From: an uncultured Desulfobacteraceae bacterium
GTDB taxonomy: Bacteria; Desulfobacterota; DSM-4660; Desulfatiglandales; HGW-15
Direction: 5' to 3'
Length of the DNA: 64,000 nucleotides
Assembly: GCA_964418945.1 (NCBI GenBank)
Contig: CAYQNR010000004.1
Coordinates: 2,156 to 66,155 of the forward strand
Of this stretch, positions 3,746 to 20,461 are shown piece by piece. A model generated the notes under the pieces. The model worked only from the letters and a program-made list of their open reading frames with translations, ran no database searches and had not been told where the DNA came from. Position 1 is the stretch's first letter. Each line of letters opens with the position of its first letter. Made by a program: the position numbers and the translations under genes.

Positions 3746-5392
3746 TCACTCTCTCGGAACAACAGGAGCCCATTCCACTTTCGCGGCACCGAGGAGTGTT
3801 CCGGTTGCATATGCCAGGTCTATAAGTGCTATCTGATACTCCGCAAGGGCCAGGATTTCCAGTCTCTGTGCGTCTGCAAAGTCTGTCTGAGCATTCAGGA
3901 CATCCGTGGATGTAACAAGGCCCAGTTCAAACTGTCTTTTTTCCGCCCTATACTGCTCGTGCTTAAGGATGGTTGTCTGCCTGCTGGCCAGAACACGCTG
4001 CCAGTTTGCCTCGAGTTTGTCAATCTGGTTTAGCACTTCATACTTTATTTCAGACTTTTTACTCTCCCTGCTGGCAAGTCTCTGGGCACGTTCATACACT
4101 GCCTTTCGAAGCCTGCTTTTTGCCTCCCTGTTGCCAATGGGTATGGATACCTGAAGACCGAACCGGTGATCATTAAAATCATTATCGGACAGGAGGTCAT
4201 ATGAGTCGGTTCTTTCCGGACCCAGACCATTTATATTATATCTGTACTCCAGTGTTACCAGGGGAAGAGTCTGGTTCTTAAGGAAGTCAATGTTACTGCT
4301 GTCCTGGGCTATCTGCAGTTCCAGCTCCAGCATCTCCATCCGGTTTTCAAGGGCCTTTTCCACCATCCTGTTCCTGTTAATTTCATATCTGACAGGGTCC
4401 GGCGGAGATGACGCGATTAAGACCGTTTTTGTTTCCATGCCCAGCCCTTTCTTGTTGAGCATGCGTTTCAAGTCCCTTTCAGTGTCCCGAACATCGTTTT
4501 CAGCCTTTATAATTGCTTCAAGCTTGTCTGCTACACTCGCCTCTGTCCGGATCATCTCAATTTTGGGTTTCTCTCCCACCTCTACAAAACGTGAAGTCTC
4601 CTCATATAAGGCCTTTGAAAGGTCATACTGTTTCCTGCGGACCTCCAGAAGTTTTCGCGTACCGTAAAGCCTCCAGTAGGCACGGTCCACATTGGCGATT
4701 ATGCGGATTGCCTCAAGCTTGGTCCTGGCATCTGTTATACTGCTGTTGTATTGTGCCACCCGAATGCTGTGAGTATTCACCCGATTGCCGCTGTTGCGAA
4801 GCAGGGGCTGACTTATGGACGCAGAAAAGTCTGATTCATAGGAAGGATTAAATACTGAAAAAAGAGAATCCGTTTTCATCCGCCGGTCTGCAATGTCAAA
4901 GGAGAGTGTTCCCCCTGTTCTGAGTGGAATGCTTACACCTAAGTCAACGGAAGTGCTGTCCACGCTGGATCCCGCTATATCGAGCGTTGAAGCGGTGGGT
5001 GTGTCAGTCTTTGCATAGTTCACATTACCCGTAAAGGTAGCATCAAACTTTGCCTCCTCCTGACTGATCCCCTCCTTGGCAATGGAGGGATTGATAAGCT
5101 GCACCCGAAGATCCAGATTGTTTTCAAGGGCAAGTGCACGGCATTCTTCAAGGGAAAGCTCGATCTGGGATGCTTCCGGTTCAATCACATCCACTGTATA
5201 CGGTTTATCCTCTGCTGCTTCTTCTAAGTCAATGACATCAATCTGTCTTACCTCTTCCTGAGGAACAAAGAATTCCGGAGAAGGTTCATACCAATCTTTC
5301 ACGTGTGAACATCCCCCCATAAAACATAATCCATATATCATTGAAATTAGAAACGGTGAAACAAGCTTTTTAAATGAAAACCCTTTTTCCAT
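3746..5392 (-). CDS. TolC/OprM-family outer-membrane efflux lipoprotein
   Basis: Two-repeat OEP-type sequence. It is the last gene of the efflux operon. The start is moved to ATG 5392 (GAGGAGG 8 nt upstream; lipobox FMGGC). Confidence 0.85.
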   Translation of the reverse strand: MEKGFSFKKLVSPFLISMIYGLCFMGGCSHVKDWYEPSPEFFVPQEEVRQIDVIDLEEAAEDKPYTVDVIEPEASQIELSLEECRALALENNLDLRVQLINPSIAKEGISQEEAKFDATFTGNVNYAKTDTPTASTLDIAGSSVDSTSVDLGVSIPLRTGGTLSFDIADRRMKTDSLFSVFNPSYESDFSASISQPLLRNSGNRVNTHSIRVAQYNSSITDARTKLEAIRIIANVDRAYWRLYGTRKLLEVRRKQYDLSKALYEETSRFVEVGEKPKIEMIRTEASVADKLEAIIKAENDVRDTERDLKRMLNKKGLGMETKTVLIASSPPDPVRYEINRNRMVEKALENRMEMLELELQIAQDSSNIDFLKNQTLPLVTLEYRYNINGLGPERTDSYDLLSDNDFNDHRFGLQVSIPIGNREAKSRLRKAVYERAQRLASRESKKSEIKYEVLNQIDKLEANWQRVLASRQTTILKHEQYRAEKRQFELGLVTSTDVLNAQTDFADAQRLEILALAEYQIALIDLAYATGTLLGAAKVEWAPVVPRE

Positions 5393-5405: not shown

Positions 5406-6134
5406 TCAATCCCCAAGCATCTTCTCCCGTCTTTCCACACGGGAAAAGGTGAGAAGAGTAATTGCTGAAATAACTATAATAAACAGGATACGGTTTTGAA
5501 TCGTATAGGATGAAACGTCTGTCATATTCGAATCCATTGCCAGTGGATTAAAAAAGGGAGACAAACGCATCTTACTGCCAAAACCGATTATCATATTGAT
5601 AGTCAAAAGAAGTGCTGTTGCCATGGCACCGGATATCTCACTCCTGAAAAACGCGGCAAAGGCCATGCCAACGACCATGTAGAAGACTGCTGCCTGAAAG
5701 GCGCCGTAAAATGAAACAAATGGGAATGATGTGAACAGGATAAGAGTAACTATGGCCAGCAGCACTTCACTGAACAGCAGCAGACAAAAGCATGCGGCCA
5801 TCTTCGCAAGCCAGATCCTGTGGCTGCCACCAGGCACGGTATAGGCAACTTCCAGGGTCCTTCGATCCACCTCACTGGCTATTATCCGAATACCAAGACC
5901 AATGGCATAAATCACCAGAGGCAGTCCAATAAGCGACTGGACGTCTATTGCTTCAATTTCAGACTGCCGCCAGCCCACGAGAAGGAGAAACACTTGAAAG
6001 GCCGGCCAAAGCAGAGGGAGCAGCACTGTGATATAAAAACGGCGTCCTGCTATCAACTGGATGGACAGATGAGTAAGTCTTACATAATCCTTAATTCGTC
6101 CTCTAAGTCTGTTTTTCAATGTTTCATCACTCAC
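5406..6134 (-). CDS. ABC-2-type membrane permease
   Basis: Six-TM-like profile directly after the ATPase-containing gene. GTG 6134 overlaps the upstream stop (6127-6129). The 290-aa form from 6278 would overlap the upstream gene by ~150 nt. Confidence 0.65.
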   Translation of the reverse strand: MSDETLKNRLRGRIKDYVRLTHLSIQLIAGRRFYITVLLPLLWPAFQVFLLLVGWRQSEIEAIDVQSLIGLPLVIYAIGLGIRIIASEVDRRTLEVAYTVPGGSHRIWLAKMAACFCLLLFSEVLLAIVTLILFTSFPFVSFYGAFQAAVFYMVVGMAFAAFFRSEISGAMATALLLTINMIIGFGSKMRLSPFFNPLAMDSNMTDVSSYTIQNRILFIIVISAITLLTFSRVERREKMLGD

Positions 6135-9100
6135 TTTCCATATGACTCGGTCCTGACACCTTTCGCTCCATCCCGTATCCCACAAGCTGCAGGTATCCGT
6201 CCTGCAGGCTGGGAGAGATCCTGCGGGCGTGAGGAAAAGGGGGTTCTGAACATAGGGCCCGCGCACGATAGAAGCCATCTTCTTCGGGAATCTGGTCCAC
6301 GATCATGGCGTCTTTTCTAATGTTCTTCTCCTCTCCAGCCCGGATTCTAAACTCCCATACCATGCCTTCCGCTTCTCTGGCCAGCATGGAAGGCTTGCCG
6401 TCAAAGACCATTTTTCCTGCGGCCAGGACAATCACCCTCTCACAGGCTACGGCCACATCTTCAACAACATGAGTTGAAAACAGAACCACCCGGTTTTCAG
6501 CCAGTTTAACCAGAAGATTCCTGAATCGGATACGCTCCCTCGGATCAAGACCCACTGTGGGTTCATCCACTATTATTATGGGAGGAAGACGTAGAAGGGT
6601 CCGCGCAACTGCCACACGCTGCCTCATCCCGCCCGAATACCCCTTGATCTCCTTATCCGCCTGCTCAGACAGGCCTACCTCCTCGATAAGGGTTTCAACC
6701 CTCCCCTTTTTCACAAGGCTGTCGCCGATATCGTATAGCAGGGCATAATATTCCAGGTATTCTCTTCCTGTCAGGTTTCCTGGCAGACCGAAGTCCTGCG
6801 GCAGGTATCCAATCCACCTTGCCAGGTGTCTCCTTATCTTTTTAATGGATATGCCACCAATATCTATAGCGCCTGTTGTAGGCACCAGTATTCCCGCCAG
6901 GGTCCTGAGAAGTGTTGTTTTACCTGCTCCATTTGGACCGAGTATGCCTATCATCCCCTTCTCTGCGCGGAAATGGACATTCTTGAGTGCCTCCACCTCA
7001 TCCCTGGGAAGATCCAAACTGAACAACCTTCTGCTTACCCTTCGCCAGACAGTTTTTACTCTTTGCAAGAATCCCCTGCCCACACGTTCCGTTATTCTTC
7101 CTGCAACCAGGTCTCTGGCTGTCTTTCTCCCCCCTTGAATATATACTATTAAAGCCCCTATGAGCACCAGGGCCAGAGGTGCAAGACGAGGATTTCCCTC
7201 TGCCATTACCGGTATGAGATAATAATGAATGCCCAATAATATGAACACAACCCACGGGACCAGAAATGCCAGCAAATGTTCTATCCCACCGGGATCAGGC
7301 CTGCCGGAAGGATCACACTTGCCCCTCAATCGTCTCAATTGAATCAGGATCTGGCCGAGTATTACGGCGCCGGTAAAGGAGAACACAAGACGCCACCATG
7401 TGGTGCTTAAGGAAAAGGCGAGATATCCTGCCCCTGAAAGGAGTACTATCCTTGTAATAATCGGTTGAATAGTGTCTACGGGTAAAAATGGCTTGCCTCC
7501 CCTGGCAAGGACCCTTTCCGCGAAGTGTTCTCCTGATCGCCAGGCACGACCCACAGGCCCCGGACGACCATATATCTTATGGAGGAATTTTACCTCTATG
7601 TCCATTTCTGCTTCCGGTTCAGGGATATCCGATCTCCTGAACAGAAGTACTATCACTCCAAGAATAACAGCGGCTACAAGCAATGTCGTTATGATCTGCC
7701 ATGTCATGGAAGAAATGTGATCAAATATAATGAGGGGAGACATAACCGCGGCGGTCATTCCAAACCACAGCACTGTTATCCATGGACCAAGTCTTCCAAA
7801 CAGCCTGTCCAGGCGGTTCAGGAACACAAAACCCATAGGGACCACAAGCAGGATAAGCAGGCTTGAAGTGGCCAGACCTCCCATAACCACTACGGCAAAG
7901 GACGGCCATATTTCATTCTCCCTGCCTGTGGGAATGGCCAGAGGCCATAACCCGGCGATTGTGGTGCATGTTGTCATTAAAACCGGCCTGACCCTTTCCC
8001 TGACCGCTGCTATTGCAGCGGCTCCTGCCGACCATGAACCTGTAAGTACCCTCTGCTGCATACGGTCTACAAGGAGAATGGCCGGGTTTACAGTAAGTCC
8101 GAGAAGAACAACAGCCCCTGCCATGGCCATCATATCCGCAGGCATGCCTGTCAGTACCAGTGCCCACGCTGATCCCAGTATTGTTAGAGGGACAGCAAAC
8201 AGCACAAGCACAGGCATCGTAAGAGATTCGAATGTAACAGCCAGCACGGCAAAGAGCAGGAGCAGCATTGGTATAAAAACACGTTTGAACCAGCTTGTAG
8301 ACTCTTCCTTATCCGGCGGATCAACGATATACCCCGCAGGAAGATGAATGCTCCTTATCATTGACAGAATTTCCTCATCCAGTGCATCCCTTGCCGGTCC
8401 TGTTTTAGGCACACTCCCGCTGAACCTGTAAAATACACTTAACTCCCTCCTGCCGTTGTGATGCTGGATCATGGGGGGAGGAGGCATCTTGTATGCATCA
8501 GACACGAGCCCAAGGGGCAGGACACCTGCGGTTGTCGGCAGCTTGAGTTTTTCCATCTTATAACTTACCCGACTGGAGGCGGTTTCATAGCTTCTGACAG
8601 TAAGGGGGATTTCTCTTCCATCGTCCAGGATCATTCCGGCTCGCATCTCCGTCCCTTCCCTGCTCAGCATACTCAGCATCGGCATTATCTGATCCGAAGT
8701 AAGTCCCAGACCGGTCAATATAAAATGATCAGGAACAACCTGTATTTCATCCTGCCCCGGCTTGGCTGAAAGCCAGACACCATGTCTGCCTATCTCCGGT
8801 ATAGATTCCAGTCTTTCCTTTATGGATTCGGCAAGAGCCTTTAACTGACCTGTATCAGGCCCGGAAAGAACAATTTCAGAAGGCCCCTGGCCGAACAATT
8901 GCGCGTTACCACCACCTTCTCTTGATCCCCCCTCCTCTCCCGATGTATCCTCAGACCGGATTTCTATGCCTTTGAGGGTTTTTGCAGCCTCTCTTACCTT
9001 TGATCTTACCCGATAGGCTGTCAGGTCTTCAGGACGTTCATCCCGGTCGACAAACTTTATATTAAGTGAACTGTTGTCCTCCCGCACAATACTTTCAACA

Positions 9101-10911
9101 TATTTTACACCTTCAAGCTCAAGCGCCGCCTGTTCAAGTGCTGATATATCCCGGCCTATTGCCTCCAGGGAATCTCCGGATGGAACATCAATGGATAGTC
9201 TTATTTCATCAGCCTCACTTGCCTCTTCTGATGTTGAACTCACCAATACCCATGGAACAGCTACGATAACAGTAATTAAAACTGCACCTGTTATAACGGC
9301 AAGCCACCCGGCAGGACGACGAAGGGAAATCTTTAACAGGCCTGAAAACAGTTCCCGCCACTTGTCAGGATATACCAGTCCGGCATAAAGTTCTCTCCTC
9401 TTCCGGACTGCATCGAGTCTTGCCAGCGCAGCAGGAGCTGCAAGCTTTCTGCTTAAAAGAGGTACCATCCCGACAGCTACGAGCAGGGATGATACCAGAG
9501 GCAACAGAATAGCGGCGGCAAGTACCTTAAGAAGCCCTCTGATCATTGCGTCCTCAGTTAAAAATGCGATAGGGAGAAACACAATAGCTGTTGTCACTGT
9601 CGCGGCTATGATCGCCCTGATAGTAATCTTTACACCTTCCCCTGCTGCCGCGTCCGGTTCTACTCCCCTTTCAAGCTTGCGCTGAATCGCTTCATACACA
9701 ACTATGCTGTTATCCACCAGCATGCCGATTCCCACAGCAAGACCGATAAGGGTTACTATATTGAGGGTATAACCACCGGTGTATAACATTGCCATGGCAG
9801 CCAAAAGACTGACAGGCACAGACACTGCGACTACACTTACCGCCCTTGGTCGGCGTATGAACAGAAAAAGCACTACAAGGGCAATGATAAATCCGCTGAA
9901 AGCCAGTTTCTTGAGTCGATCAAGCTGTTCTTCCACTGCTTCAGCGCCGTCAAAGCCTATTACAAAATCAATCCCATAGGGATTAAATTCATCCCGCAAA
10001 TCATCAATTCGGGAGCGGAGATCTCTGCCCAGTTTAACAAGATTGGCCCCTTCTTCCTTGAGCACAACAAGACCCACGGAAGGCTTGCTATTTACCCGAA
10101 ACAGCATGTTTGTTCTTCCGGTTCCTCTTGACACATCCGCGACATGGCGTATCAGTACAGGCTTATCCTTGGCTACCCTTATTTCTTCCAGGGCATGGAT
10201 GCCCTTTGGACGACCATCAAGCATTATTGGTGTTCTTTTTGACTCATCTTCCAGCCCTCCCAGGAATCTGAGACGATGAACCGATCGGGTAAGTGATTCT
10301 GTTACATCCCTGGGTGAAATTCCAAGCTCGGCACATTTGTCAGGATTGATACGGACAGTAACTTCCTCTGGCGCGCCTCCCATTACAAAAACAGTACCAA
10401 CACCTGTAACAGCGGCCACCCTGGATTGTATTCTGTCCTCAACAAGGCTTCTAAGGGCATTGTCGTCTGCCCCGCCCAGCACCTGAATGACCATGACAAA
10501 ACGACTTATAATGGAAAAATCCTGCGCTTCAACACTGATTGTTGTTCCCTTTGGCTGGTTTCTTTTAAGTTCAATTGCCAGATGCTGCATTTCCAGTTGA
10601 CGGACTTTGATGTCTGTTCCCGGCTCAAAGCTGACAGTAAAAGAACCCCCGGAACCCCTGACCTCACCCCATGACTCCTTCATTCCGGGGAGTTCGGACG
10701 ACTTTGCCTCTAGAGGAATCAGAATCTCCCGTTCCACGACTTCAGGTTCGCTATTGAGCCTGTTAAAATTTACGTATAATTTGTCACCTTCCAGGTTCGG
10801 AACAAGCTCAACGGGTATTTTCTGCCACCCCACGATTCCCAGCAAAAGAATGGCGGCAAAGAGCATAGATGTGGCAACAGGACGCTGGACAGGGAGGTTG
10901 TACCACTTCAT
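6127..10911 (-). CDS. RND (AcrB-like) transporter fused to an ABC ATP-binding domain
   Basis: Residues 1 to ~1040 are AcrB/HAE-like. Two extra TM helices follow, then DIEVKFLHKIYGR (NBD strand 1), ~4 TM helices, Walker A GPNGAGKT, signature YSGGMRQR and Walker B IIIVDEPT. It is one uninterrupted ORF whose ATGA overlaps the upstream RND stop. Confidence 0.8.
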   Translation of the reverse strand: MKWYNLPVQRPVATSMLFAAILLLGIVGWQKIPVELVPNLEGDKLYVNFNRLNSEPEVVEREILIPLEAKSSELPGMKESWGEVRGSGGSFTVSFEPGTDIKVRQLEMQHLAIELKRNQPKGTTISVEAQDFSIISRFVMVIQVLGGADDNALRSLVEDRIQSRVAAVTGVGTVFVMGGAPEEVTVRINPDKCAELGISPRDVTESLTRSVHRLRFLGGLEDESKRTPIMLDGRPKGIHALEEIRVAKDKPVLIRHVADVSRGTGRTNMLFRVNSKPSVGLVVLKEEGANLVKLGRDLRSRIDDLRDEFNPYGIDFVIGFDGAEAVEEQLDRLKKLAFSGFIIALVVLFLFIRRPRAVSVVAVSVPVSLLAAMAMLYTGGYTLNIVTLIGLAVGIGMLVDNSIVVYEAIQRKLERGVEPDAAAGEGVKITIRAIIAATVTTAIVFLPIAFLTEDAMIRGLLKVLAAAILLPLVSSLLVAVGMVPLLSRKLAAPAALARLDAVRKRRELYAGLVYPDKWRELFSGLLKISLRRPAGWLAVITGAVLITVIVAVPWVLVSSTSEEASEADEIRLSIDVPSGDSLEAIGRDISALEQAALELEGVKYVESIVREDNSSLNIKFVDRDERPEDLTAYRVRSKVREAAKTLKGIEIRSEDTSGEEGGSREGGGNAQLFGQGPSEIVLSGPDTGQLKALAESIKERLESIPEIGRHGVWLSAKPGQDEIQVVPDHFILTGLGLTSDQIMPMLSMLSREGTEMRAGMILDDGREIPLTVRSYETASSRVSYKMEKLKLPTTAGVLPLGLVSDAYKMPPPPMIQHHNGRRELSVFYRFSGSVPKTGPARDALDEEILSMIRSIHLPAGYIVDPPDKEESTSWFKRVFIPMLLLLFAVLAVTFESLTMPVLVLFAVPLTILGSAWALVLTGMPADMMAMAGAVVLLGLTVNPAILLVDRMQQRVLTGSWSAGAAAIAAVRERVRPVLMTTCTTIAGLWPLAIPTGRENEIWPSFAVVVMGGLATSSLLILLVVPMGFVFLNRLDRLFGRLGPWITVLWFGMTAAVMSPLIIFDHISSMTWQIITTLLVAAVILGVIVLLFRRSDIPEPEAEMDIEVKFLHKIYGRPGPVGRAWRSGEHFAERVLARGGKPFLPVDTIQPIITRIVLLSGAGYLAFSLSTTWWRLVFSFTGAVILGQILIQLRRLRGKCDPSGRPDPGGIEHLLAFLVPWVVFILLGIHYYLIPVMAEGNPRLAPLALVLIGALIVYIQGGRKTARDLVAGRITERVGRGFLQRVKTVWRRVSRRLFSLDLPRDEVEALKNVHFRAEKGMIGILGPNGAGKTTLLRTLAGILVPTTGAIDIGGISIKKIRRHLARWIGYLPQDFGLPGNLTGREYLEYYALLYDIGDSLVKKGRVETLIEEVGLSEQADKEIKGYSGGMRQRVAVARTLLRLPPIIIVDEPTVGLDPRERIRFRNLLVKLAENRVVLFSTHVVEDVAVACERVIVLAAGKMVFDGKPSMLAREAEGMVWEFRIRAGEEKNIRKDAMIVDQIPEEDGFYRARALCSEPPFPHARRISPSLQDGYLQLVGYGMERKVSGPSHMESE

Positions 10912-13900
10912 GATTCTGCCCGATTAATACGCAAATGGTCCAAAAGGAGATACAGGCAAGGAATGACAAGAAGAGAAAACAGTGTTGATGTGATGACCCC
11001 TCCGATAATAGTCAGGGCGAGGGGAGCCCTTAACTGCGCTGCCTCACCTACGCCTATCGCGAGGGGCAGAAGGGCCAGCACTGTTGTTGCGGTAGTCATA
11101 AGGATAGGACGAAGCCTTATGGCCGCAGCCCTGGCCAGCGCTTTTTTCCGTTCCAGGCCTTGTGCCATAAGCTGACGTGCGGTCTGGACCATGAGGATGG
11201 CGTCGTTCACGGCAATACCGGACAAAACAATAAGACCCAGAAACTGCATAACTCCAATGGGACGACCGCCCGGAACAAGTACTGCTGCTACACCCACAAG
11301 GGCAAAGGGTATGGAAGCAAGGACAGTGACAGGGTGGACTAGAGACTCAAACGTGCCTGCCAGAACCATGAACACGAGGAGTATAGCTATTATACCTGCC
11401 CATTCCAGTTCACTAAAGGCCTTCTGCCGTTCCTCCTCTTCTCCGGCGAGTTTGATACTCAGCCCCGGACTCAGGTTAATATTTTTTATGACCTTTTCAG
11501 TAACTGCCCTGGCAACCGGGTACTCAACACCTGATGCAACTCTCGCGGTAATCCTGGCTACCCTTCGCTGATCCCTTCGAAATATCTCAAGCGCCCCCTC
11601 TACCGGTACAAAGTCAGCGACATCTCCCACTGTAAGTCGCTCTCCACCGGCAGTAGTAAAGGGGATGGATTTCAGGTCGGGAACATATTTTTTATCCATC
11701 AGAAGAACTACATCCCGTTCCTCATCACCGGTAGACAGTTTTGTGACAGCACGGCCATCAAGGGCAGCTTCAAGTACCCTGGCAAGACTGTCCAGATCAA
11801 TACCAAGACCGTCACAGAGTGTTCGGTTCAGGATGACATGCACTTCAGGCGCGCCACCTTCAAAGGAAGAGCGCACATTCCAGAGCTCAGGCAGTGTCCT
11901 TAATCGTTCAAGAACCTTTTCAGCGCTTTTTCTGAGGTCTATAACTGACTGCCCGGAGATCTCAACCTGGACAGGAGGGCCTGTAGTACCAATGGCCCGT
12001 GAAAGAACGGACGTGCCCAGTTCCCAGGAAACTTCAACATTCGGCAGGGAAGATACTGCTGATGAAGCGGCAGAAACCACCTGGCTCGCTGTTTTACCCT
12101 TTGCTGACAGGTTCACAAGGATTCTTGCCGTATTTTCACCTGTCCTTTCTTCACGTATAAAGTGGTCATCCTCCGGCAGCCTTCCCACCTCAGACAATAT
12201 TGTACGAAGGTCATCTCCTGCCGCTTCCCTGATTATCTCTTCAACAACGGCGGACATATTTTTCGTTGATTCAACACGCTGACCTGGCGGACCCACAATC
12301 CTGAGGGTAAACTGCCTGGGATCAGCAGGGGCAAGGAGTTCGGAGCCCAGGCCTAGCAGGCTGTTGATTGATATTGCAACCAGCAAAAGGCTTATGAATG
12401 TTACGAGAATGGGATGTTTTAACAGACTCAACACAATAGCTTCTATTCTTGCCTTTCCCGGATCAATCTCCCTGGTTTTTCGTCCGGGAAGAAACCATGC
12501 AGCGAGAGCCGGAATCAAGAAAATAGCCACCGCAAGAGAAGCGACAAGAGAGACTACTACAGTAAAGGATATGCCCGATACAAGCCTGGCTGCCAGTCCC
12601 TGAATAAAAAGAACAGGTAAAAACACAACACATGTGGTAAGTGTGCTTGCCACAATCGCCCCTGCGACCAATGCAGCACCTTTTGCAGCCCCCTCTCCCG
12701 GTGAATCGCCCTCTAACCTTCTGCGAAATATACTTTCTATTACAACAATGGCATTATCAACCAGCATCCCGGCACCAAGAGCCATTCCCCCGAGAGTCAT
12801 CAGGTTAAGGCTGTAGCCGGCAAAATGCATGGCAAACAGTGTGGCCATAAGGGATACGGGGACTGCCGAGACAACCACGATTGTTGATCCCAGAGAACGC
12901 AGGAAAAAGGTCAGTACAATGACAGCGAGAATAATACCTATAACAGCGGCGCCTTCAACATCATTAATCGCATCCTCAACCAGAGCCGCCTCATCGCTGA
13001 CTATTCTGAATTCAATATTTTTGAGATCAGTGTTCAGATTTTCAATGGATTCCCTTACGCTTCGGGAAACCTTTACAGTATTGGCTCCTGCCTCCTTATA
13101 AATGGAAAGACTGACTCCTTCCTGACCGTCTACGAGGACCAGATCACTTATCTCCTTCTCAGCGAGAACAACCCGGCCAAGGTCTCCGACCCTCACAGGA
13201 ACCTGCTTGTTTTCCGAATCCCGGTCATACTTGACCAGTACCTGCGTTATATCCTTGACATCCCTGAATCTGGATAAACCTCTTACAAGGTAAACTCTGT
13301 CTCCCTCCTCCAGGGTTCCTGCGTTAATATCCAGGTTTGATGCTTTAATGCGCTGTTCGAGCACTGCCATGGTTACGCCGTGCGCTTCCATCAAATATCT
13401 GTCCAGGAGGATCCTGACTTCCTCTTCACGACCTCCTGTAACACGTACTTCTGCCACCCCTTCAAGCTGTTCAAGGGCAGGAGCAAACTGGCGTTTTGCT
13501 ATGCGGCGCAGTTCAGTAAGGTTGGGAATTCCATCCGGGGCGACAAGTCCCAAAGAAAGGACAGGCAACTGGCGTGGGTCCTGACGCCGGACAAGAACTT
13601 CATCAACATCAGGATCTGCGGCAATGGGATTTACCGCCTTCTGTACATCCACAAGGGCAAGGTCCATATCCGAGTGCCAGTCGAATGTTACCCTGACAAT
13701 AAGGTTTCCGGATCTGGCCACCTGGTTGATTGCCCTGATTCCCCTGACTGTAAACAGGCGTTGCTCAACCTGCTCACCGTAAAGGCGTTCCATTTCAGTC
13801 GGGGGACGGTCACCGGAACGTATCGCGACCAGTACTGTAGGGCTCTGAATGTCAGGAAGGAGATCCAGGGGCAGCTCTTTCCAGGATATCCATCCAAGCA

Positions 13901-13970
13901 TTACTATCGCCGCAGCAACTACGGTTACTGCCACGGGTCGTTTTGTCGCGTAGCGTGCTAGAATATACAT
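10908..13970 (-). CDS. RND efflux transporter permease (AcrB family)
   Basis: 1020 aa with a canonical AcrB-like N-terminus and 12-TM organisation. Confidence 0.9.
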   Translation of the reverse strand: MYILARYATKRPVAVTVVAAAIVMLGWISWKELPLDLLPDIQSPTVLVAIRSGDRPPTEMERLYGEQVEQRLFTVRGIRAINQVARSGNLIVRVTFDWHSDMDLALVDVQKAVNPIAADPDVDEVLVRRQDPRQLPVLSLGLVAPDGIPNLTELRRIAKRQFAPALEQLEGVAEVRVTGGREEEVRILLDRYLMEAHGVTMAVLEQRIKASNLDINAGTLEEGDRVYLVRGLSRFRDVKDITQVLVKYDRDSENKQVPVRVGDLGRVVLAEKEISDLVLVDGQEGVSLSIYKEAGANTVKVSRSVRESIENLNTDLKNIEFRIVSDEAALVEDAINDVEGAAVIGIILAVIVLTFFLRSLGSTIVVVSAVPVSLMATLFAMHFAGYSLNLMTLGGMALGAGMLVDNAIVVIESIFRRRLEGDSPGEGAAKGAALVAGAIVASTLTTCVVFLPVLFIQGLAARLVSGISFTVVVSLVASLAVAIFLIPALAAWFLPGRKTREIDPGKARIEAIVLSLLKHPILVTFISLLLVAISINSLLGLGSELLAPADPRQFTLRIVGPPGQRVESTKNMSAVVEEIIREAAGDDLRTILSEVGRLPEDDHFIREERTGENTARILVNLSAKGKTASQVVSAASSAVSSLPNVEVSWELGTSVLSRAIGTTGPPVQVEISGQSVIDLRKSAEKVLERLRTLPELWNVRSSFEGGAPEVHVILNRTLCDGLGIDLDSLARVLEAALDGRAVTKLSTGDEERDVVLLMDKKYVPDLKSIPFTTAGGERLTVGDVADFVPVEGALEIFRRDQRRVARITARVASGVEYPVARAVTEKVIKNINLSPGLSIKLAGEEEERQKAFSELEWAGIIAILLVFMVLAGTFESLVHPVTVLASIPFALVGVAAVLVPGGRPIGVMQFLGLIVLSGIAVNDAILMVQTARQLMAQGLERKKALARAAAIRLRPILMTTATTVLALLPLAIGVGEAAQLRAPLALTIIGGVITSTLFSLLVIPCLYLLLDHLRINRAES

Positions 13971-13974
13971 GGGA

Positions 13975-15075
13975 TCAGGTAGTCCCTGTTACACGAACCC
14001 GGGTCTGGTCAGTAAGTGTTTCAAGCCCCCGGGTGACAACCCGTTCACCGACTGACAGACCTTCCCGGATTTCCACAATAGAATCATCACCAAGTCCCAG
14101 TACCACTTCTTTCATAGCAACTCTCTGGCCTTTAAGGACAAAAACCACCCACTTGCCACCCCGGTCTGTTACTGACTCCCGGGGCACATATGGGACACCT
14201 TTTCTCTGTTCCTTGATTATAATCACCTCAACAAACATCCCGGGCCTGAGTTTTTCCTGACTATTATCCACCTCTACTTCGGCCCTTAGTGCCCGGGTTA
14301 CAGGATCAATCACAGGATCAAGGCGGACTACCTTGCCCGGAAATATCTCATTTTCCCAGGCATAATGCAGAATTCTTGCCTGAAGTCCTTCCTTTACCTT
14401 TGCCACATCCTGACCCACCAGATCCACATCCGCTATAAGAACGCTGGTAGGGGCGATTCTGGCTACTTCTAAGCCGGGATTGACAAACTGACCCACAGCC
14501 AGGGGCTGGTTCTGGTTGTCCCTGTCCCTTGCCAGCCTGAGGATGACACCGTCTATGGGAGTAGCCAGCAGGTTGCGTTTTTCTGAATTCAGGCTTCGTT
14601 CATACTCCAGCCTTGCATCTTCAAGACCGGACTGCTTGGTGAGTAATTCCGATTTACTTTTAAATCCCTCTTCGTACAGTTTTTTTGCTGCTTCATATTC
14701 ATCTTTTGCTGTCAGAAATTTCTGATAATTTGCCTTTGTTCTTGCGGCCAGGCGTACATCCTCTCCCGTGATCCTGGCAATAACATCACCGGCCTTTACC
14801 CTGTCTCCTTCCTGATAGCGTCGTCCACTCTCATTTGTGAGAAATTCCAGGATACCCCCGGTCTCCACTTCAAGACGTGCCATTTTTTTTGCGCGCAGTG
14901 TTCCGGTTGCAGTAATCCTGTCCTCAACATCGGTAATTCCTACATCCGTGACAGTTACAGGGACCAGAAAATCAATTTCATCAACAGGATTTTCACCTGT
15001 ACAGCCTGAAAGGCAGACCAATACAGATGAAAGAATCAAAATAAGCAACCCGAAAAAGACATGTCTTTTATTCAT
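13975..15075 (-). CDS. Periplasmic adaptor (MFP/HlyD family) lipoprotein
   Basis: Lipobox LSGC, with barrel-sandwich, coiled-coil and beta-barrel sequence pattern. It lies directly upstream of the RND genes. Confidence 0.85.
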   Translation of the reverse strand: MNKRHVFFGLLILILSSVLVCLSGCTGENPVDEIDFLVPVTVTDVGITDVEDRITATGTLRAKKMARLEVETGGILEFLTNESGRRYQEGDRVKAGDVIARITGEDVRLAARTKANYQKFLTAKDEYEAAKKLYEEGFKSKSELLTKQSGLEDARLEYERSLNSEKRNLLATPIDGVILRLARDRDNQNQPLAVGQFVNPGLEVARIAPTSVLIADVDLVGQDVAKVKEGLQARILHYAWENEIFPGKVVRLDPVIDPVTRALRAEVEVDNSQEKLRPGMFVEVIIIKEQRKGVPYVPRESVTDRGGKWVVFVLKGQRVAMKEVVLGLGDDSIVEIREGLSVGERVVTRGLETLTDQTRVRVTGTT

Positions 15076-15089
15076 TCGCTCTCCTTCTG

Positions 15090-18000
15090 TTAATCGCCCT
15101 TTGAGGGTGTCCAGCGTATTGCATCCGCGACAACAAGCTGTCCCTTTGTTCTATCAGAAAGTTCAACAGTCACTTTCCCTTCGGGAAGGTTCAGTTTTTC
15201 TGCCAGGTTCCATCCTTGAATTCCCGCCTCTGAATCAAACTCTATTTTATGCTGATCTCCATTACTGTCACTTACTGTAATATACCATGTACCATACCGT
15301 CTATTCATAAAACCGGTTTTCACAGGCAGATGCAGTTCAAGATCCCATGCGCCATCGTTTGGCAGGGAGGTCGAAAATAAGGCCCTCTTACTGCCTTTAC
15401 CCGGTCTTATTATCGCGAAAGTATGGCGATAGGTTCCCCAGGCTGTTGTTTCTGCTATGCGAGACCATTCACCGGGAACAGGTAACGCCAAAATGTTTGA
15501 AGCTATGTAGGGCAGCCCTTGATCTGTTTCCTCATCACTGTTATTACGTGCTTTTAAGCGCAACCCCTTTTTTTCTTCCTCTTCTGTGATTTCAAAACCT
15601 TTATCCAGATCATCAACAACAATTGAATTATCAACCGGAAGAGTCCACGGGATTTCCTCAATCCCTTTTATGGGATCCTTGTTAACAATCTTATCATGAT
15701 CAAAAAAATTGACGTTTATTAGGAAAATCATCCTGTTAAGCGACAGATACGGTTCCAGAAAATAGCTGTCTGGAAGCCTGGATAGAATCGTGCCGTATTG
15801 AAGCGAGTGCTTTCCTGCAAGCCTGATGGACTCACTTGTTGCAAGTTCAAAATTATTCGATTCTCCCGGATATAGATATACAAAACGAAAAACTCCTGGT
15901 ACGGGCTCATCATTTCTTACGGTAAACAACAGCTGATACTGCGGACTTCCATTCTCATCATCAGGAATTCGATAACCTTTTGCCTCGGAAACAACAAAGC
16001 CCGGCAGTTCGGCGCTACCAATCCAGTCACCAAACAACTCGTTAAAGTCATATCCCAGATCTTTTCCGACCTTTATCATATCATCAACAGAAAAACATTG
16101 GCCTTGGTGATTATTGCGAATAATTGAAAGGAGTGTGGCTGTTTTTTCCCGGCCAAGTACATCCAGTATAGCCTGGGATATGGCATAGCCCTTTAATGTA
16201 AGGACATCCACCGTATCTGCAGGGTCCTTCCAGGGATCCATGTCTTTCAGGGAAACCTCGAGGGCCTTTTCCCATACTGCAGGTCGTGATGTCATTGCCC
16301 TGATAGTAGCATCGGAAAAAGATACACCTAAAGAGCTGGTCTGGATGTAGTTCAATAATACCGAGGTAATGATAGAACTAATTTTGCTTCCGGCTGAGTA
16401 GATATGCGCGGAAAAATAACCCTTTGTGTCCGCGATCAGAAGCCCGGAAAGTGTTTCCATTACAAAATTGAGGGCAAGGCTTTCGGGCCCCACAGCAGAG
16501 GTCTGGTACAGGAAAAAATTTCGTGGTGCCCCTGTTAAGATATTCCCCCCGGAGAAATCATTCTTAAAAAAGGTCTGAAGCCTTTCCCATTTTGCCTGGG
16601 CTATGCCTCCTTCTCTGTCCTTATACCTTTTAGGATTTCTGAAAGCCGAATCAAAACGCGCTGTTGGCAGGGATAACTCCCTCAGCAGTAATAGGCCCGG
16701 AGGAAACTGGACCGTATCAAGCCGCCATCCGCCTCCATATGCCCGTAAACAGGTCGGTACCTCTACCACTGTAAAACCGTCGTAGGGATACCCCAATCCC
16801 ATCTCCTTCGCCTCTTTTAATCTATCACCTGCCCATTCGCGTATTTTATCACCGGTCTCTGCAAGTACCTCAATGTTCTTCATATGTTTTTTAGAGATTA
16901 ACACTTCCATTAAAACATTATCCACTTCAAAGGAGCGGCTTTCAAACCGTGATGCGATCAGTGCAACCTCCGGTACCTGAGATGGAGGTGAAAAACGGAA
17001 CACATTAAATCCATTTCTTTCTTCCACCTTTTGTCGTCTGCCAGGTCCTGCAACAAGCCATGTTTCCGGAAGCTCAACCAAAAGGTCCACATTAAAAAAA
17101 TCCGTAGCCCGTTCTCGCGGGTCATTACGTCCCTTTTCAGGCCCGGACGCGGGCAGCCATCGAGCAGCAGGCATTAATGCAACAAAACCTGAATTGAAGA
17201 TAATATTTTCAGTTCCGAGCAGGGCAATATTGTTACTATTCAGAACACTCATCTCCTGAATATTCATCGCGCTCTTGAGATACGCAAAGTTTTTATCGGG
17301 CAGACCTTCAACATGCAGGAGTACAACTGTTTCTTCACCGGGGGAAAGAATTTCAGGCAGTGAGATCTCGAGCAATCCGTTATTGTGGATGAAATCTATC
17401 GGGTTACCTGTAATATCAAGGACCTTTGTTACCTTTTGGCCCGGGTTGAGGGTAAAGAGGGCCTTTTTTAACGAGTTATCTTCAGGCGCGCAGAACCTGA
17501 TATCGAGATCGAGATCCAGTTTTTCCCCGGGAATGATCTTTACTTTTCCGGAGACAGTTTTAAGATCAGGCACAGGCTCCTGGCTATATTTGCCATGTGC
17601 TTCATACCACAATTCCTGGTTTCTTATAGCTTTTACATCATTAGAATACACAAAACCTAAAAGGCCGGCTGCTATAATAACAATTGCCGTTCCCACGATA
17701 GCAAGTTTTGCGCGAGAACCGTCATCAAGCCGTGGATGAACGGCAGCGCTGACACCCAGTATACCAAGGGAGGCAATGAGTATGGCTATTCGATGCAGCA
17801 GAGCGTCAGCGTCGCTAATGAGGGGAACTAGTTCCGAGGGAAAATTCATCTGGAACATCCCGTAAATATCAAATATTTGGGCTTTATAGAAGGGGAGCTT
17901 TGATATTGCCCAGACATCAAGTCCCATAAGTATAAGAAGAATAACAGCCGAGACCAACCTGTTGCGTACAAGTAAAGTGATCATGAATACAACTGATAGC

Positions 18001-18512
18001 ACAAATGCCAGACATGGAAGGCTCATAAAAAAAACAAAGGCCAGAAGTGAGTACAGTTCAACAGGTTCACCGATCGGGGAACCTACGCCCTTAAGAAGCA
18101 GTCCTAAAAGCTCAAGGAAAACCACCAGTATCAGGATAGGCACCCAGGCAGGGATAAGGATGCCCAGGAAACGGCCTGCCACAAGCTCCAGGTTTGTATA
18201 GGGACGGGAATCAAGAACTTCCATAATCCGTTCTCTCCTGTCCCTTGCCCTGACATCAAATGCCAGGAACACCACCCCCACAGAATAGATCAGCAGGTAG
18301 TACATTCCTATAAAACTAACCAGAAACTTTGGGCAGATAAGCCCGGCGGTCGCGGAATTTGTTGAAAAGATGCCGTGAAGAATTGAGTAATATAAAAACG
18401 CAATAAGTACAATCAGGGAAGAAAAGGAAAGGAATACCCAGTAACGCACAAGGCGTCTTGTGACACGGGTTTCAGCCTGGGCAATAGACCAAACCGGTTT
18501 CATATCAAGCAT
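15090..18512 (-). CDS. ABC-2-type permease fused to a ~800-aa extracytoplasmic domain
   Basis: The N-terminal ~300 aa are multi-TM. The rest is a large soluble region ending ...LVVADAIRWTPSKGD. The start overlaps the ATPase stop. Confidence 0.75.
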   Translation of the reverse strand: MLDMKPVWSIAQAETRVTRRLVRYWVFLSFSSLIVLIAFLYYSILHGIFSTNSATAGLICPKFLVSFIGMYYLLIYSVGVVFLAFDVRARDRRERIMEVLDSRPYTNLELVAGRFLGILIPAWVPILILVVFLELLGLLLKGVGSPIGEPVELYSLLAFVFFMSLPCLAFVLSVVFMITLLVRNRLVSAVILLILMGLDVWAISKLPFYKAQIFDIYGMFQMNFPSELVPLISDADALLHRIAILIASLGILGVSAAVHPRLDDGSRAKLAIVGTAIVIIAAGLLGFVYSNDVKAIRNQELWYEAHGKYSQEPVPDLKTVSGKVKIIPGEKLDLDLDIRFCAPEDNSLKKALFTLNPGQKVTKVLDITGNPIDFIHNNGLLEISLPEILSPGEETVVLLHVEGLPDKNFAYLKSAMNIQEMSVLNSNNIALLGTENIIFNSGFVALMPAARWLPASGPEKGRNDPRERATDFFNVDLLVELPETWLVAGPGRRQKVEERNGFNVFRFSPPSQVPEVALIASRFESRSFEVDNVLMEVLISKKHMKNIEVLAETGDKIREWAGDRLKEAKEMGLGYPYDGFTVVEVPTCLRAYGGGWRLDTVQFPPGLLLLRELSLPTARFDSAFRNPKRYKDREGGIAQAKWERLQTFFKNDFSGGNILTGAPRNFFLYQTSAVGPESLALNFVMETLSGLLIADTKGYFSAHIYSAGSKISSIITSVLLNYIQTSSLGVSFSDATIRAMTSRPAVWEKALEVSLKDMDPWKDPADTVDVLTLKGYAISQAILDVLGREKTATLLSIIRNNHQGQCFSVDDMIKVGKDLGYDFNELFGDWIGSAELPGFVVSEAKGYRIPDDENGSPQYQLLFTVRNDEPVPGVFRFVYLYPGESNNFELATSESIRLAGKHSLQYGTILSRLPDSYFLEPYLSLNRMIFLINVNFFDHDKIVNKDPIKGIEEIPWTLPVDNSIVVDDLDKGFEITEEEEKKGLRLKARNNSDEETDQGLPYIASNILALPVPGEWSRIAETTAWGTYRHTFAIIRPGKGSKRALFSTSLPNDGAWDLELHLPVKTGFMNRRYGTWYITVSDSNGDQHKIEFDSEAGIQGWNLAEKLNLPEGKVTVELSDRTKGQLVVADAIRWTPSKGD

Positions 18513-19444
18513 TATGCCACCTCCTTTTCGGAAGTCTCTAAGCTCTTTCCCCGTGCTGCCATAAAGGCCAGGTATGCCTCCTCCAGGGTAGGGTTTTCCA
18601 GTAATCTTGCCCCTGGAGGAAGATTCCGGTCACTTGATACTGCCCGGATGGTAACTTCATTTTCCCTGTCCTCTCTTGATACTATTTCCAGATTAGCGGT
18701 AACCTGTGCCTCATCCTGATGGGGGATGGTTATTTCAAATACCGAACCTACGGCCCTTTTAATAAGTTCGGATGGACTGCCCCTGAATTCCACCTTTCCG
18801 TGATCGATCAAGGCCATATCAGAACATCCTGAACCCAGGTCCGCAACTATGTGGGTGGAAAGGAGGATAACCCGGTCCTGACCAAGCCTGGTCATTAACT
18901 GTCTGAAATTCAGACGCTCCTCAGGATCCAACCCAACTGTAGGTTCATCCACAACAAGGATCCTGGGTTCATGGACAAGGGCCTGTGCTACACCCATTCT
19001 TCTGACCATACCGCCTGAAAGTTTCTTGACTTTCCGGTCAGCCACATCGCTAAGGCCGACAGACTCAATGATTTCATCGACCCGCTTATGACGAAGAGAT
19101 TTTTCCTCAAGGCCGGAAAGGGCTGCAAGGGTATCCAGCACCTCTGCCACACGGTGCAGACGCCATGCGCTGAATTCCTGGGGCAGGTACCCTATCAGAC
19201 TTCGCACTTCCCTGCGATTATCCACCACATCATAACCACCCACAGAAACCTTCCCTTCTGTGGGGGGCAGCAGGGTACAGATGATACGCATAAGGGTGCT
19301 TTTACCGGCTCCATTAGGACCAAGCATCCCGAAAAACCCTGTACCTATCTTAAGGTCAATGCCATCAAGTGCGACAGTATCCTTTTTATAAATATGCCGG
19401 ACTCCTTCGATGGCGATATGCATCCCATTTTCAGCCTGTTCCAT
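18512..19444 (-). CDS. ABC transporter ATP-binding protein
   Basis: Walker A GPNGAGKST, signature LSGGMVRR, Walker B ILVVDEPT. Confidence 0.92.
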   Translation of the reverse strand: MEQAENGMHIAIEGVRHIYKKDTVALDGIDLKIGTGFFGMLGPNGAGKSTLMRIICTLLPPTEGKVSVGGYDVVDNRREVRSLIGYLPQEFSAWRLHRVAEVLDTLAALSGLEEKSLRHKRVDEIIESVGLSDVADRKVKKLSGGMVRRMGVAQALVHEPRILVVDEPTVGLDPEERLNFRQLMTRLGQDRVILLSTHIVADLGSGCSDMALIDHGKVEFRGSPSELIKRAVGSVFEITIPHQDEAQVTANLEIVSREDRENEVTIRAVSSDRNLPPGARLLENPTLEEAYLAFMAARGKSLETSEKEVA

Positions 19445-19546: not shown

Positions 19547-20461
19547 TTAGAGTTTTCCGGGCGCAAAATCTCCGCTGCCGAAAGGCCGAACATCTGTAAG
19601 TATAAATGGTCTGTCAATCTTTGTAATGATTAGCGGACAGTGTGCAAGGCCTTTGGGTATCACCACTGCAGTCGGTTCGGTTATTACATGTCTTTCCATT
19701 TCCTTTCCTAAGTATAACTCAGCCTCTGCCCCCAGATAGCCTAGATTATTGGTATCTATCCCCATAAAAAAAAGGATCTCGGGTTTGGGATGGGTATGCG
19801 GCTTATCCGGTATAGGACCAAATCTGTACGGAGCTTTTTTTAAGCTCTCGCACATAATAAGAAATTCAAATTCATTCGGGTCTTTATTATAAATGAAGGC
19901 AAGTGAACCGCCTGAGTCGTCCCGGTTCTTAGGCCCATAAATCCAGGCACCTTTGCGAATGAACGCGGTATTCATAATGTGTTTCCTGTATTTGCCCGTC
20001 CATCCCATTATCGGCGCAGACTCAAAAACCTTCTTATCAAATGGCACAGACTTCTCTTTATATTCAGAAGCATATGATATTTCCATGTATATAAAACGGT
20101 TATCCATTCTTTGAATAGTAGCCGGGAAATGCGATAACCCTTTGGGAACCCAGACCGATGAAGAACTAGTAATCATATATCTTTCTCCTTCTTCGCCCAT
20201 ACAAAGCTCGACCTCAGCACCCAACTCTCCCATCTCATTTGTATCTACTCCCATAAAAAGCATTATCTGATTAAAGTCATGGGAGTGCGGGCCATAGGGT
20301 TCCTTCCCCATCTTACCAGCTGCAACAAAGGTTCCAAACTGAATATGAAAATCCAATCCAAAAGATTTCCCGTTTAGTTGAGTCACCTGCCTGTTGAGCC
20401 CGGATGTATCACCTTTAAATTTGAGTTTTTTTACATATCGACCGTATTTTGTTTTAGCCAT
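19547..20461 (-). CDS. Bicupin protein, uncharacterised family (paralogue 1 of 4)
   Basis: Two cupin modules: PHSHDFNQIMLFMGVD...VPKGLSHFP and PHTHPKPEILFFMGID...IPKGLAHCP. Confidence 0.75.
   Translation of the reverse strand: MAKTKYGRYVKKLKFKGDTSGLNRQVTQLNGKSFGLDFHIQFGTFVAAGKMGKEPYGPHSHDFNQIMLFMGVDTNEMGELGAEVELCMGEEGERYMITSSSSVWVPKGLSHFPATIQRMDNRFIYMEISYASEYKEKSVPFDKKVFESAPIMGWTGKYRKHIMNTAFIRKGAWIYGPKNRDDSGGSLAFIYNKDPNEFEFLIMCESLKKAPYRFGPIPDKPHTHPKPEILFFMGIDTNNLGYLGAEAELYLGKEMERHVITEPTAVVIPKGLAHCPLIITKIDRPFILTDVRPFGSGDFAPGKL

Follow-up and report, generated by a model that had tools for sequence, protein, structure and literature searches.

A single gene of an uncultured Desulfobacteraceae bacterium joins a resistance-nodulation-division (RND) permease to an ATP-binding cassette (ABC) ATPase in one polypeptide of 1594 amino acids. 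The gene lies at positions 6127..10911 on the minus strand of a stretch of 64,000 nucleotides (the window; GenBank assembly GCA_964418945.1, contig CAYQNR010000004.1, positions 2,156 to 66,155), where the open reading frame (ORF) call gives an ATG start and 1594 codons followed by a stop. All other features described here lie on the same strand. The gene is a genuine and ancient hybrid of the two transporter types, and there is very little doubt that it represents a real, conserved fusion with a predicted functional ATPase. Another unusual property concerns the ATPase itself. Its nucleotide-binding domain (NBD) is split between the first strand with the A-loop and the second strand by a family-specific four-helix membrane anchor. 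All parts of the system come from known families, namely ACR_tran, ABC_tran, ABC-2 permeases, membrane fusion proteins (MFPs) and OEP. Nevertheless, the fusion is without two defining details of its parent families: the full relay of AcrB and the contiguous beta1-beta2 hairpin of ABC ATPases. The architecture had been proposed in a first-pass annotation, which was made from the letters of the DNA and their translations.

The N-terminal part, residues 5-1031 (7819..10899), is a complete RND permease domain. The Pfam profile ACR_tran (PF00873) matches it with 481.8 bits against a cut-off of 28 and covers positions 3-1020 of 1021, so that the domain with its 12 transmembrane (TM) helices is followed end to end. 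In phmmer comparisons with solved structures, this half is most like the HAE-1 pumps AdeB, AcrB, MexB and MdtB (E 5e-62 and weaker). The same chain matches ABC_tran (PF00005) at residues 1309-1452 with 103.5 bits against a cut-off of 25. Between the two domains, hydropathy gives two extra helices after the RND part (1045-1063 and 1073-1091) and four further hydrophobic segments (1151-1169, 1172-1192, 1210-1228 and 1243-1261), and AlphaFold2 gives the same six helices. The first pair, TM13 and TM14 (residues ~1043-1091; 7639..7785; helices 14-33 and 40-62 in the numbering of the model), forms a linker that is predicted to bring the chain back to the cytoplasm and that carries conserved W/T/W positions. 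The segment MDIEVKFLHKIYGR (residues 1103-1116; 7564..7605) comes next. It is separated from the sequence DEVEALKNVHF, which begins at residue 1304, by an insertion of 187 amino acids (residues 1117-1303; 7003..7563), outlined by hydropathy and AlphaFold2 and composed of two short amphipathic helices, four TM helices (~1144-1270) and a basic juxtamembrane helix. Residues 1304-1594 (6130..7002) hold the remainder of the ABC ATPase with a C-terminal domain of regulatory type, as judged from PF00005, the motifs and Foldseek. Arg and Lys abound in the loops that follow the even-numbered extra helices but not in the short loops between paired helices, and a cytoplasmic position of the NBD therefore agrees with the positive-inside rule. 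The even number of added helices, together with these positive loops, is predicted to keep the NBD in the cytoplasm. The layout is the one given in the first-pass annotation: an AcrB-type permease up to about residue 1040, two TM helices, a displaced first NBD strand, some 180 residues with about four helices, the remaining NBD with all of its motifs last, and an even helix count giving a consistent topology. Each of these elements was recovered.

The first-pass annotation had also argued against a sequencing artefact, and the occurrence of the gene supports this. Independent assemblies (JGI and Logan) contain the identical 1594-aa product on 22 contigs, where its neighbours are also the same. 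An alignment of the C-terminal module served as the query for a scan of 185,579 species, each represented by one genome, and relatives were present in 291 species-representative genomes. The sequences of the best 80 of these 291 relatives were fetched, and the locus counts and synteny given here refer to them. At 68 of the 80 loci, a single one-frame tblastn alignment runs over residues ~1-1580 inside an ORF of ~1,570-1,620 codons; ten of the other 12 loci are cut by a contig end, and two (L014 and L018) are broken internally. Intact orthologues are found on closed chromosomes and in the isolate genome of Acidobacteria bacterium Mor1 (CP011806). According to the record titles, the holders belong to the Desulfobacterota (Desulfatiglandales, Desulfobacterales and others), the Acidobacteriota (Thermoanaerobaculia including Ca. 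Multivorans, Vicinamibacterales and Holophagae) and the Gammaproteobacteria (Pseudomonadales and Azotimanducaceae), and one Planctomycetia-labelled and one Cryosericum-labelled metagenome-assembled genome (MAG) also hold the fusion. The closest relatives (~90% identity) are two MAGs labelled Bacteroides sp. SM23_62 and one labelled as an uncultured delta proteobacterium. Among L009 and L012-L024, one relative stands at 89% and the next ones at 61-70%, all of them Desulfatiglandales, Desulfobacterales or 'delta proteobacterium'. The label Bacteroides sp. SM23_62 (L008, L010 and L011) is probably a taxonomic misassignment; two of these loci, L010 and L011, are both complete and lie in one MAG with this label.

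A lost stop codon, a frameshift, a chimeric join or a gene-calling error could also give the appearance of a fusion, and some database relatives do appear as pieces of 500-900 aa. The first protein search returned two-domain homologues of only 400-965 aa. These short homologues are misleading, because the listing consists of cluster representatives, and the cluster of the window protein is itself represented by a 643-aa fragment. On long contigs, the pieces sum to ~1,600 aa (770+830; 572+376+666) and stand in different frames. The loci L001, L002, L003 and L088 carry the same ~1,600-aa gene, frame-broken in long-read or low-coverage assemblies. Short pieces are thus either representatives from short contigs or parts of frameshifted genes. 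Half-RND fusions were considered as the cause of the homologues of at most 965 aa and were rejected in view of the cluster-representative effect and the frame-broken long contigs. Open frames of 2000-2550 codons that resembled RND-RND-ABC triple fusions were rejected as well, as these loci have a GC content of 70-75% and the upstream RND gene is in another frame. No orthologue encoded as two genuine separate genes was found among the 80 loci and the database relatives, and the apparent splits are frameshifted low-coverage or long-read contigs. The pattern that the first-pass annotation had named as fatal to its claim, orthologues always in two genes, did not occur. Read-through, moreover, would not yield conserved and topologically sensible linker helices. 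With the identical ORF on 22 contigs and 68 intact orthologues, the probability of an artefact is practically negligible.

One ORF might also be translated or processed into two products, an RND permease and a membrane-anchored ABC ATPase, by internal initiation or by proteolysis. The window sequence offers an in-frame ATG at nucleotide 7605 with GGAAG upstream, and the tight coupling of the operon genes means that co-expression would be kept either way. However, the resulting Met1103 is unique to the window sequence. It is replaced in 61 of 61 aligned relatives, by Val in the closest ones and by 'GPP..' in most others, and the internal start raised by the first-pass annotation is not a feature of the family. 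A product initiated there would be without the two linker helices, which have conserved residues and exist only in the fusion context. A stop between the two parts of an orthologue was seen only in frameshifted contigs of low quality. Separate products are very improbable.

The linker and insertion also behave as a module of this family. A phmmer search with residues 1040-1300 against 1.84 billion representative proteins gave only 39 clusters at E ≤ 0.001. The full-length members (1528-1601 aa) all bear the module at ~1035-1300, and the remaining clusters are fragments. Unfused relatives of the linker, insertion and NBD were not found among these representatives. A stand-alone candidate, P0061, was rejected, as it follows an overlapping ACR_tran fragment on a contig with 2x coverage. 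The idea that the six extra helices are a cryptic ABC-2 membrane domain was likewise rejected at the level of sequence, with an hhalign probability of at most 1% against the permease alignment. A duplication of the linker pair reached an hhalign score of only 11%, and in Foldseek no PDB entry matched the extra helices.

The split of the NBD was recognized from what its sequence profiles leave out. In the intact protein, the GldA profile aligns only from its position 16; because of this late start, the first NBD strand appears to be absent locally. The segment at residues 1103-1116 supplies it. All 62 aligned members conserve the motif (I/L/V)-(E/D)-V-(R/K)-x-L-x-K-(V/I)-Y-G-x-P-G-P, in which K, G and Y, the last at the aromatic position of the A-loop, are invariant. 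AlphaFold2, run on the family alignment, models residues 1105-1114 as a ten-residue beta-strand (mean pLDDT 86.9, pTM 0.75). The only other multi-residue strands assigned by DSSP in this model fall in the NBD, and the sequence directly before beta2 is modelled as helix and coil. The segment was also joined in silico, as a 14-mer, to residue 1304, with the native upstream 14 residues and a shuffled 14-mer as controls. The GldA profile then matched with 190.7 bits from its position 1, compared with 180.9 bits from position 16 for the native residues and 181.1 bits from position 15 for the shuffled ones, and the PQQ-ABC and NodI profiles behaved like GldA. The conservation of the motif, the modelled strand and the splice test together identify residues 1103-1116 as the missing first strand. 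In place of a contiguous beta1/A-loop-beta2 hairpin, the fusion has beta1 at 1103-1116 and beta2 from 1306 onward, with 187 residues and four TM helices between them. The free ABC ATPase encoded in the same operon shares 38% identity with the fused NBD (E 5e-64), and its beta1 and beta2 are contiguous. The fused NBD therefore looks like a paralog that gained an insertion.

The catalytic motifs of the NBD are in place: Walker A at 1325-1333, the Q-loop at Q1372, the signature at 1426-1432, Walker B and the D-loop at 1445-1456, and H1481. Across 69 orthologues, the Walker A sequence GPNGAGKT (with K1331), Q1372, S1426-G-G-M-R-Q-R, D1449-E1450, the D-loop residues G-L-D and H1481 are invariant. 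Because of this invariance, the NBD is predicted to be catalytically intact and functional. Its nearest curated profiles are GldA and DrrA, although it reaches the NCBIfam cut-off of neither, and the nearest solved structures in Foldseek are TM_1403, NosF of NosDFY, ABCA4/ABCA7, LptB and MetN. These profiles and structures place it as an ATPase of the ABC-2 lineage with a C-terminal regulatory-type domain. With an NBD of DrrA/GldA/NosF lineage and an adjacent, separate 6-TM permease, the locus has the composition of an ABC-2-type exporter, but it is no equivalog of the named ABC-2 systems, as all curated cut-offs are missed.

The RND half departs from the classical pumps in its proton relay. 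In AcrB-type HAE-1 pumps, the relay comprises D407, D408, K940, R971 and T978. In the fusion, the TM4 pair D400-N401 (9709..9714), equivalent to D407-D408, is part of an invariant D-N-S in 69 orthologues, and the TM10 pair N942-P943 (8083..8088), equivalent to K940-N941, is an invariant N-P. The equivalents of D408 and K940 are thus both Asn. Alignment with solved pumps matches R973, R975 and T980 to the Arg/Thr region of TM11; like D400, N401 and N942-P943, they are invariant or nearly so in the 69 orthologues, and D400, R973 and T980 conserve the corresponding positions of the HAE-1 relay. Where the first-pass annotation had spoken of a proton-motive RND transporter, the permease is complete, but the proton drive was an assumption and the canonical relay is incomplete. 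The loss of D408 and K940 was considered as a fusion-specific mark of lost proton coupling. This is weakened by the plain RND paralog of the operon, which also has D-N in TM4 and Asn at the K940 position; because the two proteins share this pattern, the atypical relay is best seen as a subfamily trait. An alternative geometry of the proton relay may exist in this RND subfamily. The fixed difference between the paralogs is in TM10, where the N922-D923 of the plain RND has an invariant Asp and the fusion an invariant Pro. The invariant titratable residues in a hydrophobic context are D400 and E895 in the fusion and R358, D405, R462, E875, D923 and R981 in the plain RND; the invariant D923 of TM10 and the three invariant membrane Arg of the plain RND are absent from the fusion. 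This distribution suggests, from conservation, that the two RND subunits are specialised, and it falls short of proving a loss of proton coupling.

The fusion is embedded in a tightly packed operon. Its order on the minus strand is a 304-aa protein, a free ABC ATPase, a 1140-aa protein, an MFP, a plain RND, the fusion, a small permease and an outer-membrane factor (OMF). The free ATPase (B, 310 aa, 18512..19444) is DrrA/GldA-like and, by profiles and alignment, a paralog of the fused NBD. The 1140-aa protein (C, 15090..18512) is an ABC-2 permease with a large extracytoplasmic M1-aminopeptidase-like domain and Golvesin_C, according to Pfam, a structure model and Foldseek. The MFP, a periplasmic adaptor of 366 aa (13975..15075), matches HlyD_D23/HlyD_3 in Pfam and the RND_mfp model TIGR01730 with 170.9 bits against a cut-off of 94.9. 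The plain RND paralog (1020 aa, 10908..13970) was identified by Pfam and is 30% identical to the RND half of the fusion. Downstream of the fusion, the ABC-2 family permease (G, 242 aa, 5406..6134) has a GTG start and six hydrophobic segments predicted as TM helices, and matches ABC2_membrane_2 with 33.5-35.2 bits against a cut-off of 27.2. The OMF of the TolC/OEP family (548 aa, 3746..5392) scores 161.7 bits with OEP and 107.6 bits with TIGR01844, which is under the cut-off of 225.15. As the first-pass annotation had read from the DNA, the start codon of the fusion overlaps the stop of the upstream RND gene as ATGA, and its stop lies within an 8-nt overlap with the GTG of the permease gene. 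These overlaps, together with synteny, bear out the coupling of the three genes. The 304-aa ORF upstream of the free ATPase gene (19547..20461, from the ORF call) matches nothing in Pfam or NCBIfam, and no TM helix is predicted in it; it is syntenic in 4/4 contigs listed. ARAGORN found no tRNA or tmRNA gene in the window.

The order of the large ABC-2 protein, MFP, RND, fusion and permease is conserved from the Desulfobacterota to the Acidobacteriota and Gammaproteobacteria. Two RND paralogs stand in tandem after the adaptor gene in most loci, and they miss the NCBIfam equivalog cut-offs of MdtB and MdtC. An MFP and an OMF are co-encoded in the window, as in a tripartite pump. The MFP is kept in most loci, and the OMF is linked only in the clade of the window (Desulfatiglandales-type loci). 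In virtually all loci that reach far enough, the next gene downstream is the ABC-2 permease. In six of the 80 loci (L052, L061, L067, L072, L082 and L086; Pseudomonadales, Azotimanducaceae and other Gammaproteobacteria), the MFP, the plain RND and the large ABC-2 protein have no match within ~7 kb upstream. At L061, which is annotated, the permease is the only related neighbour, and the unrelated ones are a 2OG-Fe(II) oxygenase, an alcohol dehydrogenase, an acyltransferase and a citrate transporter. Because these six loci are without other genes of the system nearby, the invariant core consists of the fusion and the small ABC-2 permease. In several Thermoanaerobaculia, Ca. Multivorans among them, 2-4 paralogous copies of the small permease follow the fusion with its one fused NBD (L045, L051, L056, L057, L062-L064, L068-L070, L075, L078, L079, L083-L085 and L087, of which L084 is labelled Holophagales).

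The 1140-aa protein gives hints about the cargo. Its fold is modelled with confidence (pLDDT 83.2, pTM 0.81). Residues 1-307 are the ABC-2 permease part with ~7 TM helices, and the extracytoplasmic region has the fold of M1 aminopeptidases, with IRAP, ERAP1 and PepN as Foldseek matches (E ~3e-18, ~640 columns, ~12% identity). The zinc motifs HEXXH and GXMEN are absent in 36/36 family members. The M1-like domain is probably a non-catalytic binding or scaffold domain. There are hints that the system may handle peptides or other polymeric or envelope-associated cargo rather than small drugs. In databases, the protein is named 'NosY-like permease' or 'hypothetical', and three paralogs of it (P0147, P0227 and P0232) occur on one 6.48-Mb Desulfatiglandales contig (L022).

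The best overall explanation, which is held at slightly less than an even chance, is a hybrid in which an ABC-2 module is tethered to a tripartite RND pump for two-stage export with two energy sources. The fused NBD likely pairs with the permease encoded directly downstream, as the invariant synteny and translational coupling indicate, and it would energise this permease. The six extra helices would tether the ABC-2 module permanently against the RND membrane domain. In most lineages, as the operon suggests, the RND half, the plain paralog and one MFP, together with the OMF where it is encoded, would form the tripartite pump. ABC engines need two NBDs, and RND pumps of the AcrB type are trimers. 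MdtBC, with a stoichiometry of 2:1 (MdtB2C), offers a model, and a mixed RND trimer of this kind would reconcile the three-fold RND symmetry with an ABC dimer, either with two fusion subunits or with one fusion whose NBD pairs with the free ATPase. The existence of RND heterotrimers such as MdtBC is stated in a 2021 review of tripartite pumps (PMC8277102). In a first stage, the ATP-driven ABC-2 module would extract or flip the substrate to the periplasmic side, out of the cytoplasm or inner leaflet; in a second, the attached assembly of RND, adaptor and channel would expel it across the outer membrane. It is documented (PMC4235344) that pumps of the inner membrane, which move substrates from the cytoplasm to the periplasm, act in synergy with AcrAB-TolC, which moves them from the periplasm to the outside. 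The two-stage relay would be a hard-wired form of this synergy and is the most economical proposal for the function. That such a relay is the actual function is possible, but rather doubtful. A more general proposal is an obligatorily coupled RND and ABC machine in one polypeptide, which would be the first of its kind. Here, ATP hydrolysis would be mechanically linked to the RND cycle, either by feeding substrate directly into the RND porter out of the cytoplasm or inner leaflet or by driving or gating an RND with a decayed relay. This is a serious possibility, although the balance tips somewhat against it.

Several points weigh against the tethered two-stage pump. The three-fold symmetry of RND pumps clashes with the two-fold symmetry of ABC engines. 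The contact between the NBD and the permease is a prediction from synteny and translational coupling, and the stoichiometries proposed here are hypothetical. Because the plain RND and MFP are not near the fusion in six of the 80 loci, a mixed trimer could be universal only if these genomes encode the partners at another place. The pairing of beta1 with beta2 is read from the DSSP assignment in the model; such a strand assignment needs a pairing partner. Finally, the RND half is without D408 and K940 of AcrB and, unlike its paralog, without a carboxylate in TM10, and this leaves room for the main rival. In that rival, the NBDs would power or gate the RND half itself through the six extra helices by mechanotransmission, replacing or supplementing the degenerate relay, with the permease as an accessory. 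D400 is indeed the only invariant membrane-embedded Asp that the RND half keeps, and the TM10 Asp of the plain paralog is replaced by an invariant Pro in addition to the two Asn substitutions. The closest structural relatives of the NBD include NosF and LptB, which belong to machines that spend ATP on periplasmic work and not on classical transport. In the Pseudomonadales-type clade, furthermore, no proton-competent partner RND is encoded near the fusion. Nevertheless, D-N in TM4 and N in TM10 are shared with the plain paralog and are largely a subfamily trait, and D400, R973, R975 and T980 are still conserved; single-Asp relays work in other members of the RND superfamily such as SecDF. The fusion is also always co-encoded and translationally coupled with a dedicated ABC-2 permease, which is the usual partner for an NBD of this type. 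An ATP-driven or ATP-gated RND is unlikely.

The symmetry problem would be solved differently if the fused NBD formed a heterodimeric engine with the free ATPase B, together with the permeases C and G. One fusion per trimer would then dock an asymmetric ABC-2 machine, with cargo handled by the M1-like domain. The 38% identity of the two NBDs includes the C-terminal domain, B, C, the fusion and G share one tight operon conserved across phyla, and a trimer of two plain subunits and one fused subunit would hold a single NBD. The 2:1 ratio of MdtB2C is a precedent for this composition; the heterotrimer itself appears in the 2021 review (PMC8277102). On the other hand, six loci have the fusion and G without B or C nearby, and a pairwise BLASTP comparison shows no similarity between G and the membrane part of C. 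In some lineages, 2-4 copies of G stand beside a single C. One site is often degenerate in heterodimeric ABC pairs, but the fused NBD and B both keep complete consensus sites. A heterodimeric engine is quite unlikely, and a tethered ABC-2 module that works with the RND pump is retained as the preferred explanation.

The architecture is deposited in databases but is uncharacterised and apparently undescribed. No NCBIfam model reaches its cut-off on the fusion, which thus stays under the curated thresholds of all named families of RND and ABC proteins. The database names are 'ABC-type multidrug transport system ATPase subunit', 'efflux RND transporter permease subunit, partial', or none. No description of an RND-ABC fusion was found in full-text searches of the literature or in the accessible part of the comprehensive 2021 review of tripartite pumps (PMC8277102), and the statement of the first-pass annotation that it knew of none has survived these literature and database checks to that extent. 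The possible significance is considerable. If the coupled-machine reading is true, tripartite pumps that span the envelope would have a fourth type of energiser, next to ABC, RND and the major facilitator superfamily (MFS). Efflux and export machines of diderm bacteria are grouped according to what powers them. The proton gradient drives RND pumps, which pick up their substrates from the periplasm or outer leaflet, and ATP drives ABC pumps. To our knowledge, the cooperation that is known between inner-membrane pumps and RND tripartite pumps takes only the form of a loose functional network. A conserved covalent hybrid would, if true, be natural evidence that the direct coupling of steps or energy sources pays. 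It would also be a ready-made complex for seeing how a two-fold ABC engine is docked on a three-fold RND trimer. The four-helix membrane insertion between beta1 and Walker A points to an unexpected tolerance of the ABC fold. Members are found in Acidobacteriota, Desulfobacterota and Gammaproteobacteria that are abundant in the environment, and one cultured isolate (Mor1) also has the fusion, so that the family is open to experiment.

Known systems resemble the fusion in parts. It is like the HAE-1 tripartite pumps (AcrAB-TolC, AdeABC) in its full-length ACR_tran domain, the MFP in its operon and, in the clade of the window, the OMF, and it is like mdtABC in the two adjacent RND paralogs after the adaptor gene. 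Unlike HAE-1 pumps and MdtABC, it has ~560 extra residues that form six TM helices and an ABC ATPase; the Asn residues at D408 and K940 also set it apart from HAE-1 pumps, and it stays under the NCBIfam cut-offs for RND pumps (410 bits against 1250; MdtC 229 against 1774). The closest NBD sequences and folds are those of DrrAB, GldAFG, NosFY(D), TM_1403 and LptB, with which it also shares an adjacent 6-TM ABC2_membrane_2 permease, and NosF and TM_1403 have a similar C-terminal regulatory-type domain. In contrast to DrrAB, GldAFG and NosFY, its NBD is covalently joined to an RND permease and carries the 187-aa four-helix insertion between beta1 and beta2, and its 176-191 bits are far under the equivalog cut-off of GldA (402.6).

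The regulatory insertion in NBD1 of CFTR is located at the same site, between the first two beta-strands, and is an example of a sizeable insertion that this hairpin of an ABC NBD can accommodate; ~30 disordered soluble residues in CFTR stand against 187 residues with four TM helices in the fusion. In MacAB-TolC, similarly, an adaptor and a TolC-type channel work with an ATP-driven inner-membrane part whose NBD is joined to membrane helices. According to the review (PMC8277102), it is the sole established entry of ATP into a tripartite pump. The FtsX/MacB domain was not found in the fusion by Pfam or NCBIfam, and the MacB structure 5lj9_B aligns with it by the NBD only in Foldseek. MacB has the FtsX/MacB four-helix fold with a periplasmic domain of its own and no RND part, whereas the periplasmic machinery of the fusion is the porter and docking domain of an RND pump.

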